This document shows positions 54,733 to 57,700 of a stretch of 64,000 bases of DNA, piece after piece; position 1 is the first letter of the stretch, and the number at the start of each line of letters is the position of its first letter. Source of the stretch: Saccostrea echinata (Eukaryota). Both the position numbers and the translations under genes were made by a program. Where the stretch lies: assembly GCF_033153115.1 (NCBI RefSeq), contig NW_026889759.1:5704001-5768000 (forward strand), read 5' to 3'. The notes under the pieces are model-generated. The model did no database searches. It was not told where the DNA came from and saw only the letters and a list, made by a program, of their open reading frames with translations.

Positions 54733-57700
54733 TTAGCTACAGGGCCCATCTTTAATAGAAATGTCATCTAGTGCCACATCACCATGAAAACTAGCTCCTC
54801 TGGTTGGTTGAAAATCAATTTTGTATGGGTGGGTTTGTACAGGAATAGTCATTCTTGCTTCGATCCATTTGGCTCCATGATTCCCAGTTTGATGCAAAAT
54901 GTTCGCACTACCACCATTTGACGGCTAAAATCAATTTTAATTCAAAACATTTTTTCCAGAATTTTGTTTTCTTAATTCAGTCTGTATATTCTTATCTACA
55001 GATACATGTAAGATAGCATGAATTCATAACAGCAACATATAATGATGATAATAATAATAATTATAATATATTTAAAACTTCAGAGTTAATATTCTTGTTG
55101 AGAATTGAGCAGTTTAATTAATTTGATAGGGTTATTAAATACTCGTACATAACCACTGAAGCTCAATCCTATTAACATGAGAGGTAAGATATTTAGGTTG
55201 GAGAGGGGACGTGAGTCAAATTAAAAGGGCGCATATCAATCTTGCAAGCTACCTCCCTCATACAGATGTCAATAATGAAAAAGGACGTTTTATTGTTTCG
55301 CAATGTAGGAGAAAATGTTAAACACACACAAAATACCTCAATGAGTACATCTAGACTCCCCATATCCACTCCATTCATATTGTACCAAAAGTGCAAGCAG
55401 GCCTCTTGCCGAGCAGGTAACTCAGGGGATTGAAATGAACCTTTTAAACCAGCTCGGCCTCCGGAAGTCTCCACAAAAATATAATATCCACTGCCTAGAC
55501 ATTTCAGAGAAAAAGTAAGTTTTTCAGGCGAGAGAGAAGATAGTCAATTAGATAAGTCTCTATCGATGTTTCAAATAAGAAATAAAACTTTCGAGTAATA
55601 AAAAAAATAATACTAATATCAGGGGTATAAAAGCTAATAATATCAGGAAATGGAAATCCTGTATCTAAAAAAAAAAATATCAATTACTCCTTATCTCTAA
55701 TATATTTTTCTTTTTACTTTCAAGTAATTATTAAATACCAGTCAAGAACGACACTAAATATCTATGGGAAGGTAATGACACAATAATTTTATCTGCGGTA
55801 TAGTCATGAGAACGATATTACCCGTTATATGGTCGTGGGAGCGATACTTCTACCTGTGATATGGTCATAAGACAGTAATGTTACAGGTGGTATGGGTATG
55901 AAAGCGATAATGTTACTTGTGGTATGATCATGAGACAGTGATGTTACATGTGGTATGGGTATGAGAACGATTATGTTACCAATGATAAGGTCATGAGACA
56001 ATAATGCTACTTGTGGTATAGGTATGAGAATGAAAATTTTATGTGTCATGTAGTCATGAGAACAATAATATTACCTGGTGTATGGTCTTTAGACAATAAA
56101 GTTTTGTTCGTTTGTTTGTATGTTGTTTTTCGTCCCTCTCGAGAACTTTTTACTCATATGGAGACCCCACCACTTGCCGGTGGAGAGCTGCAAATTTTGT
56201 CCTATACTCGGCACTTACGGCCATTGAGCAGTGAGGGGTCTTTTTCGTGCCAGCACCTACTGCGACACGGGACCTCGGTTTATACGGTCTCATCCGAAGG
56301 ACCGGTCTCCACGTCCCACAGTGGGATTCGACAATAAAGTAACATGTGGTATAGGCATGAGACAATAATTTTACCTGTGATAAAGTCATGAGACAATAAT
56401 GTTAACTGTGGCACAGGCATAAAACAATAATGTTACCTGTGGTATATACATGAGACAATAATATTACCTGTGGTATAGGCATAAGACAATAAAGTAACCT
56501 ATGGTACATGCATGAAACAATAATGTTACCTGTGATAAAGTCATGAGACAATAAATAAATGTTACTTAATTGTTAGATGTGGTCATGAAACAAAAATGTA
56601 ACCTGTTGTATAGCCACGAGACAATAATGATTCCTGTAATAAGGTTATGAGCCAATAATGTTACTTATTATATAGTCTATAAATAGCCCCTATATAATCT
56701 ATACAAACGCAAACGGTTCATAACACTACATATTCACTGGATTTGAAGTCGTATTCACCGGTGGGTCAGTGCGCGTGCAGCAGCATTGTGACGTCACAAT
56801 CAATACCCCAACATTGAAAACAAGATGGTTACAACGGCCGGAGCCAGCTGTGTATCTGAGCAGGAAAAATGTTAGGCAAGTGTATCGCAGGATTATTTTC
56901 CAAACATTTCGATGTCTTACACACAGCGAAATGAAATCACGGAAGTTATAAGTTGTAATCTATAGGGGTTTTTTTATTTTATTTTTCTACGACAGAGGTT
57001 CGTTAATGAAAGGTATTGTCATGCAGCCTTCAGTGTCATTTATTCAAATCCAGACTATATAATAAAACAATTAAGGACTCTTTCGGTGGTGAATATGGTT
57101 TGTTATTCACCAGAAAAATATCAATATTGACCTCGGCTTCGCCTCGGTCAATATTGATATTTTTCTGGTGAATAACAAACCATATTCACCACCGAAAGAG
57201 TCCATAATTGTGTAGTGTGATAAGGTCATGCAAATTATAATGTTTTATGTGGTAATGTTATGAGAACAATTACTAGTATGTTACCTTTGATAAGGTTATG
57301 AAAATGGTTATGAGAAGGAACGATAGTGTAACGTGTGATATAGGTATGAGAACGATAATATTACATGTGATAAGGTCATGATATTGATAATGTTATCTGC
57401 GGTGTGGTCATGAGAAAATGATGTTACCTTTGATATGGTCATTAACTTATATTGTTACCTGTAGAATTAAAGCATGAGAACGATAATGTTTCCTGTGGCG
57501 TGATCAGGAAAATAACACTGTTACCTGTGTTATAGTCATGAGAATTATAGTGTTATCTGTGATATAGTCACAATAACAATACCCAGCTTTGCAAACCAAC
57601 AATACTGTTACCTTTTATATGGTCAAAGGAATGATGGTTTACCGTTACTTTGTTCTGCTCATCAGTGCAATACTGTTACCTGTGGTATGGTCATGATCCG

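Follow-up and report, generated by a model that had tools for sequence, protein, structure and literature searches.

Tandem copies of an exon edge: a junction-spanning minisatellite in a Saccostrea echinata MAM-domain gene and an excess of such arrays in sampled genes

The window, by which we mean the whole 64,000-nucleotide stretch of DNA that was analysed, was placed on contig C10 of the 923-Mb genome. It carries on its minus strand a gene whose product, a 953-residue collagen/Ig/three-MAM protein, is identical to the database protein P0001 (Saccostrea echinata); a protein search with the exon sequence, itself a weak search, returned P0001 as its sole match. The features around the third MAM domain of this gene are as follows, in the order in which the gene is read.

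57680..57829, minus strand: opening exon of the third MAM domain, with a D-H-D-H-T-T-G motif at its end and a phase-1 donor behind it (spliced contigs X1, X2 and X5; P0001)
57668..57698, minus strand: seed unit of the array, 19 exon bases plus 12 intron bases, containing the true donor (GT at 57679-57678) and matching the consensus of the intronic copies at 28/31
55495..57679, minus strand: host intron of 2,185 bases (57679..55495), its joint 55494/57680 present in X1 and X2, with a matching loose end in X5
57645..57647, minus strand: in-frame TAA, 11 codons inside the intron (from the sequence)
57215..57667, minus strand: proximal array block, the most decayed, with irregular spacing
56665..57214, unstranded: 550-bp dispersed non-autonomous element ("H7") with a 145-bp terminal palindrome (genome search; ends compared in 11 copies)
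56330..56664, minus strand: middle array block, with 31-base spacing and a weak 93-base higher-order period
56103..56329, minus strand: 5'-truncated SINE whose flanks, 56330-56340 and 56092-56102, are the two copies of an 11-bp target-site duplication
55752..56102, minus strand: distal array block of 31+32 = 63-base dimers
55825..56049, minus strand: spurious ORF that the 63-base period creates, its 74 aa showing 21-aa echoes; covered by 0 RNA contigs
55337..55494, minus strand: next exon, with its acceptor AG at 55496-55495 (spliced contigs)

Splicing was followed in five assembled contig sets, inferred to be RNA, of which X3 and X4 are without the host gene; X1 and X2 come from two studies under two organism labels and are close matches, and X5 represents a relative with 18 differences in the third-MAM exon. 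In all three contigs that hold this exon (X1, X2 and X5) its last base, 57680, is followed by the exon that starts at 55494, and P0001 agrees with them in placing the donor at 57680/57679, where a sequence-only reading of the window had put it. The D-H-T motif of MAM domains is encoded at the exon end; in 37 MAM exons of a second gene, on contig C1, and in the host gene's two other MAM domains it is likewise followed by a phase-1 donor. Elsewhere in the gene, the MAM2 exon runs 4 bases further in the X2 contig than in X1 and X5, its donor there being part of a tandem GT (window 59410-59414); this is a frameshift unless the allele differs. A second X1 contig has exon 60167-60421 with two differences and continues into sequence outside 54600-63000; it represents either a paralogue or another downstream exon.

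The intron that follows the junction is filled to a large extent with copies of it. In an ungapped comparison the junction 31-mer (57698-57668) matches 31 places within 57630-55781 at 18-25/31, bearing out the earlier description of this intron as a 31/32-bp array of junction copies, and in the rest of the 64-kb window it never scores above 19/31, save for one inverted match inside the array (21). Gapped segmentation yields 35 intronic rows and one chance match inside an insertion; two of the 35 rows are the halves of one unit divided by the 550-bp insertion, giving 34 copies and a partial, arranged head-to-tail in the adjoining intron at 31-32 bases each. The array itself is therefore as first described, and the original figures of about 35 copies within 55790..57695 give way to this count and to an extent reaching about 55752. 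No copy is closer to the array consensus than the junction itself, whose 28/31 the best copy equals; the copies average ~25/31. Of the 2,185 intron bases ~1,130 are array and 790 are later insertions, leaving a remainder of ~270 that is comparable to the gene's other introns (124-582 bases), which agrees with the earlier proposal that the intron expanded by junction duplication. Spacing in the distal block alternates between 31 and 32 bases, with a lag-2 identity of 22.8 against 20.2 at lag 1 and a TRF period of 63, and it is this alternation, as had been suggested, that produces the spurious ORF. A unit tree yields no reliable event order from 31-base units, and the G at +7 common to the junction occurs in two proximal units and one distal unit, which gives no ground for a gradient along the array. 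The window also contains, at 49208-50044, a pair of arrays that face each other and belong to a 20/31/50-base unit family found on contigs C32 and C18 as well; they are dispersed, and no link to a junction was seen for them.

Two mobile elements interrupt the array, and both entered finished units, that is, after the array had formed, as the sequence-only reading had held. The SINE is flanked by its 11-bp target-site duplication; many RNA contigs contain it too, between differing flanks and with the 5' end extending further. The 550-bp element sits exactly between positions -1 and +1 of one array copy without a target-site duplication; its ends are fixed and AT-rich, with no such duplication in the 11 copies compared, and it occurs at 88-93% identity in at least 39 other full-length places among the best 40 scored of 1,072 candidates. 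A 32-base donor array elsewhere in the genome (C4:11147300-11148792, L181) is likewise split by an inserted element.

Beyond these structural claims, the sequence-only reading had proposed that the copies serve as decoy or alternative donors, in U1 titration or in NMD-coupled control, for which we find no support. GT is retained in 25 of the 34 copies, AG/GT in 13 (the slash marks the copied boundary), CAG/GTAA in 7 and the exact donor 9-mer in 4, so that the statement that many copies keep CAG/GTAAC was too strong. Among the 31 ungapped units GT is intact in 22, a level equalled or exceeded by 11 of the 39 other G/T column pairs, and the donor columns are conserved no more than the other columns (0.82 vs 0.82). 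The true donor fits the donor consensus at 7/9 and is exceeded by none of the copies, the two nearest of which are weakened (AAA/GT and AAG/GT). The TAA at 57645-57647 precedes 24 of the 25 GT-bearing copies, and the remaining GT copy shifts the frame; splicing at any copied donor would therefore be unproductive. No contig of X1, X2 or X5 enters the array (depth 0 over 57215-57646), and 57680 is the exclusive donor in 3/3 contigs, an outcome that the earlier reading had itself set against its regulatory part, although minor forms are invisible in contigs, which lose rare forms in assembly, and stop-bearing forms may be degraded as well. Overall, there is no sign of either decoy function or purging of the copied donors.

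It is in this light that a regulatory decoy array, in which the copies would act as alternative donors that add an in-frame stop, provoke nonsense-mediated decay and so tune expression, has to be judged. The GT of 25/34 copies and the exact 9-mer of four, all of which would truncate the protein, are what such an array would need, and CBS and 6-16 do use nearby pseudo-sites according to the account in PMC1557585. We nevertheless consider it quite improbable, given that the array is entered by no contig in the three sets with the gene, that its donor columns lack any excess of conservation, that the two nearest copies are weakened, and that arrays of this kind appear and vanish between near-identical copies of a gene.

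A DNA search of the genome placed the unit only at this locus, as a lower bound with the best candidates scored and common words skipped, and a genome pattern search, also a lower bound, gave three matches, all at this locus, against none for the control. The 37 paralogous MAM donors score 9-19/31 against the array consensus, and the host gene's two other MAM donors 15 and 10. Since the D-H-T motif and the phase-1 intron that follows it are common to other MAM domains, the junction appears to be the parent of the array, and both junction and intron would predate it; together with the 28/31 match, this upholds the junction-derived unit of the sequence-only reading. An intron gained via tandem duplication of AG/GT was considered and rejected, because the intron's position is common to other MAM domains and the intron thus predates the array. 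A dispersed satellite or transposon core that resembles the exon by chance, or an array that has overwritten the exon end, could appeal to a genome rich in dispersed tandem families (145-168-base units) and to an 8-base codon-driven likeness in other MAM exons that reaches 19/31; but both searches, within their lower bounds, returned the unit at a single locus rather than the genome-wide satellite that the earlier reading had named as evidence against itself, the exon end codes for a conserved MAM motif, and the diverged relative represented by X5 splices at the same junction, which makes this explanation highly improbable. The array may also have converted the exon end at a later stage. A U1 snRNP sponge, or a guard against premature polyadenylation, could make use of several near-consensus donor sites on one transcript, but it is hardly credible with CAG/GTAA in only 7/34 copies, none with G at +5, with no sign of selection on the copied donors and with U1 being very abundant relative to a single pre-mRNA.

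With a first unit that crosses an authentic, RNA-supported boundary, head-to-tail copies in the 10-160-base size range of the class and a unit that is specific to the locus, the array is recognised as a junction-spanning minisatellite. It is an additional case of an already-known arrangement (the "mirage", or F7 type), and it is old, its copies being ~80% identical. A single tandem duplication across the exon edge likely gave the first copies, and growth likely followed by slippage or unequal exchange. Expansion would have proceeded in rounds, with the 31-base period first and the 63- and 93-base periods later, before decay to ~80% identity; two mobile elements then inserted, as their positions within finished units show. 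Throughout, the upstream-most donor would win, as in F7, which is what the contigs show and what we infer for rare transcripts, with the stop 11 codons into the intron expected to make the choice of any other donor unproductive. We are fairly confident that the intron holds 34 decayed copies descended from a junction-spanning duplication, likely grown by slippage or unequal exchange, with only the first donor in use in the contigs, and that the array is likely a neutral passenger. Arrays of this kind, a class common in this genome, likely persist as long as the first donor (or last acceptor) remains intact.

The locus taken alone is ordinary; what matters is an excess of the class as a whole, measured in a small, family-biased sample. 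In the MAM gene on contig C1, five of six arrays with 25-100-base units cross a junction; this gene served as the discovery set and was excluded from the tests. Of the seven paralogous MAM exons checked, two carry arrays at the corresponding junction that are unrelated to the one in the window, and in other MAM genes 2/7 arrays cross one. Myosin, SNF transporters, kinesin (with a second set of 20 tiles) and kinases were then taken blind. Likely duplicate haplotypes were removed before counting (myosin C36 and C19; kinesin L190; SNF L103, L109 and L125), merging was applied to one split array and to one array shared between paralogues, arrays were counted only within 1.5 kb of an exon match, and six low-complexity arrays that had been filtered out were restored as misses. 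Exons were found by homology only, and junctions were called by eye, the guides being reading frame, family motif and GT/AG rather than RNA. On these terms 37 of 72 arrays with 25-100-base units cross a junction, and by family, with the six restored misses left aside, the counts are 23/38 for myosin, 5/7 and 8/16 for the two kinesin sets, 1/2 for SNF and 0/3 for kinases, whose loci are mostly single long exons. The 26 arrays at detected exon edges correspond to about 3% of the 814 edges detected. Donors outnumber acceptors among the junction arrays by 27 to 10 (P = 0.008), and there is a hint of donor/acceptor asymmetry in unit make-up; the automated exon share of units does not differ from uniform (P = 0.6), with at least five automatic site picks wrong. 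Arrays are clustered in some myosin genes (P = 0.013).

These counts could in principle arise with no special birth process, if arrays were seeded evenly and either the null understated the exon edges or calling by eye overcounted junctions. The exons known by homology only, the calls made without RNA and the few families involved (myosin supplies 23/37) all leave room for this, as do the 1/5 of the SNF and kinase loci taken together. Yet for the 69 arrays tested uniform seeding expects 5.7 at junctions, and 12.5 or 20.9 if true edges are twice or thrice those detected, so that 37 has P = 2e-5 at worst, against the 20.9/69 of tripled edges. For the 26 arrays at detected edges alone, none of 300,000 draws from the matching null reached 26, and P rises to 0.10 when the edges are tripled. 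A looser automatic zone test gives 27/63 against 13.0 (P = 3e-5) overall, and by single family it is significant for myosin only and not for the kinesin, SNF or MAM sets. The independent kinesin set has 8/16 against 1.2 expected, the conserved family motif ends at GT or starts after AG in most calls, and arrays of other periods, mostly dispersed families, are without excess (2/29 against 5.2 expected, by subtraction). In our view even seeding is therefore unlikely. Arrays that do not span a junction crowd the edges as well: in the first blind set 6/18 of them, judged by eye, start no more than 30 bases from a junction, where a share of 0.054 is expected (P = 3e-4; 0.0095 with doubled edges).

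Near-identical gene copies allow the single-to-multiple direction of array birth to be seen directly. The myosin copies on C5 and C36, which are either haplotypes or recent paralogues, are 97% identical; a 43-base donor unit present once in C5 has four copies in C36, and a 62-base unit shows the reverse. The C5 gene (C5:764001-784000; L169, L170) has six junction arrays with 34-93-base units and one 17-base array, and in its counterpart (C36:1789001-1799000; L171) copy number differs at all shared arrays checked but one, while three differ in presence. Several other loci are worth recording. One MAM-gene intron (C1:1544470-1545142; L013, L053) has a junction array at either end, the two being independent of each other: the donor array is 41 bases x 5, the acceptor array 31 bases x 12; one myosin gene (C9:8079001-8099000; L167, L168) has five junction arrays, at three acceptors and two donors; and a 3,430-codon open frame at C1:1484900-1495200 (L047, L048) encodes about 20 intron-free MAM domains in a gene whose other MAM domains are intron-split, which looks like a block of intron loss.

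Exon edges thus likely breed minisatellites in this genome, and the excess there suggests a repeat-making process that has yet to be described. Because arrays without splice sites also crowd the edges and the copied donors are unconserved, the cause is likely to be nearness to an exon rather than splice function. Splicing may act as a filter that would favour donors, in that few intron bases suffice for a first donor whereas a last acceptor depends on its pyrimidine tract. As the driver we favour recombination or repair that would start in the conserved exon and slip where allelic homology ends, because heterozygosity is high in amphioxus and in oysters alike. The rival driver, repair targeted to exons within methylated gene bodies, finds weak and mixed support when CpG depletion is taken as a marker of methylated genes: in myosin regions the CpG o/e of introns is 0.36 with arrays (n=10) against 0.58 (n=13; P = 0.028), but over all families P = 0.10, and the host gene, at 0.69, runs against the depletion trend. 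Taking the evidence jointly, we lean towards exon edges being the main birthplace of locus-specific minisatellites in this genome, where about half of the genic arrays with 25-100-base units would start at a junction, at ~3% of edges (as an order of magnitude, ten thousand in the whole genome, should the sample be typical); arrays would arise and change size between near-identical gene copies, and non-splice arrays would cluster there too; the driver would be boundary-tied mutation, most likely recombination or repair slipping where homology to a divergent allele ends, and splicing only a filter.

If thousands of independent, datable cases exist, the mechanism becomes testable via breakpoints, heterozygosity, methylation and recombination. 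Such arrays would also allow the choice of first donor and last acceptor to be examined in natural cases beyond mammals and would be raw material for intron gain, and they carry a warning, as arrays of this class confuse read mapping and gene prediction in bivalves. In the literature searched, with most subscription papers and the original mirage paper outside its scope, we found neither a bivalve junction-spanning minisatellite nor a genome-scale count; an abalone intron minisatellite is described, with no statement of a junction span in the available part of that paper (PMC6905558).

The closest parallels are human and amphioxus. The human F7 IVS7 37-bp VNTR, 6-16 (IFI6), CBS intron 13, LMNB2 and PDGF intron 4 share the same arrangement in the account of PMC1557585, with only the first donor in use in F7, LMNB2 and PDGF, and with the next two pseudo-sites (2-3) also in use in CBS and 6-16, a use unseen in the oyster contigs. 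As in F7, the first oyster unit crosses the donor, pseudo-donors lie downstream and the first donor is used; F7 differs in having near-identical units, 5-9 copies and 4 exon bases, against 34 diverged copies and 19 exon bases in the oyster (PMC1557585). Human spl-TRs are, like the oyster array, intronic tandem repeats beside splice sites, but they are defined via an association of length with splicing, and junction-derived units are absent from the portion of the account available (PMC10078293). The Rogers model of intron gain, as described in PMC3087553, also invokes duplication across a splice signal; in the oyster, however, the intron predates the array, and the contigs show no copy in the role of a new exon or acceptor. 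Amphioxus "mirage" minisatellites are reported for Adh3, the globins BflGb6 and BflGb9, troponin C and PGBD5 (PMC3087553, PMC3902484); they leave splicing undisturbed, and their authors suspected a general phenomenon while calling the mechanism unclear (PMC3087553). That account of boundary-spanning minisatellites rests on few genes, with an origin likewise called unclear (PMC3087553). Amphioxus mirages, which lie on the donor or the acceptor side, share with the oyster array tandem boundary copies, undisturbed splicing and higher-order turnover, and the oyster case differs in its molluscan host, its ~80% identity and its division by two mobile elements (PMC3087553). Whereas the amphioxus papers, in the parts available, list single genes (PMC3087553, PMC3902484), in the oyster an excess over chance has been measured across sampled genes.
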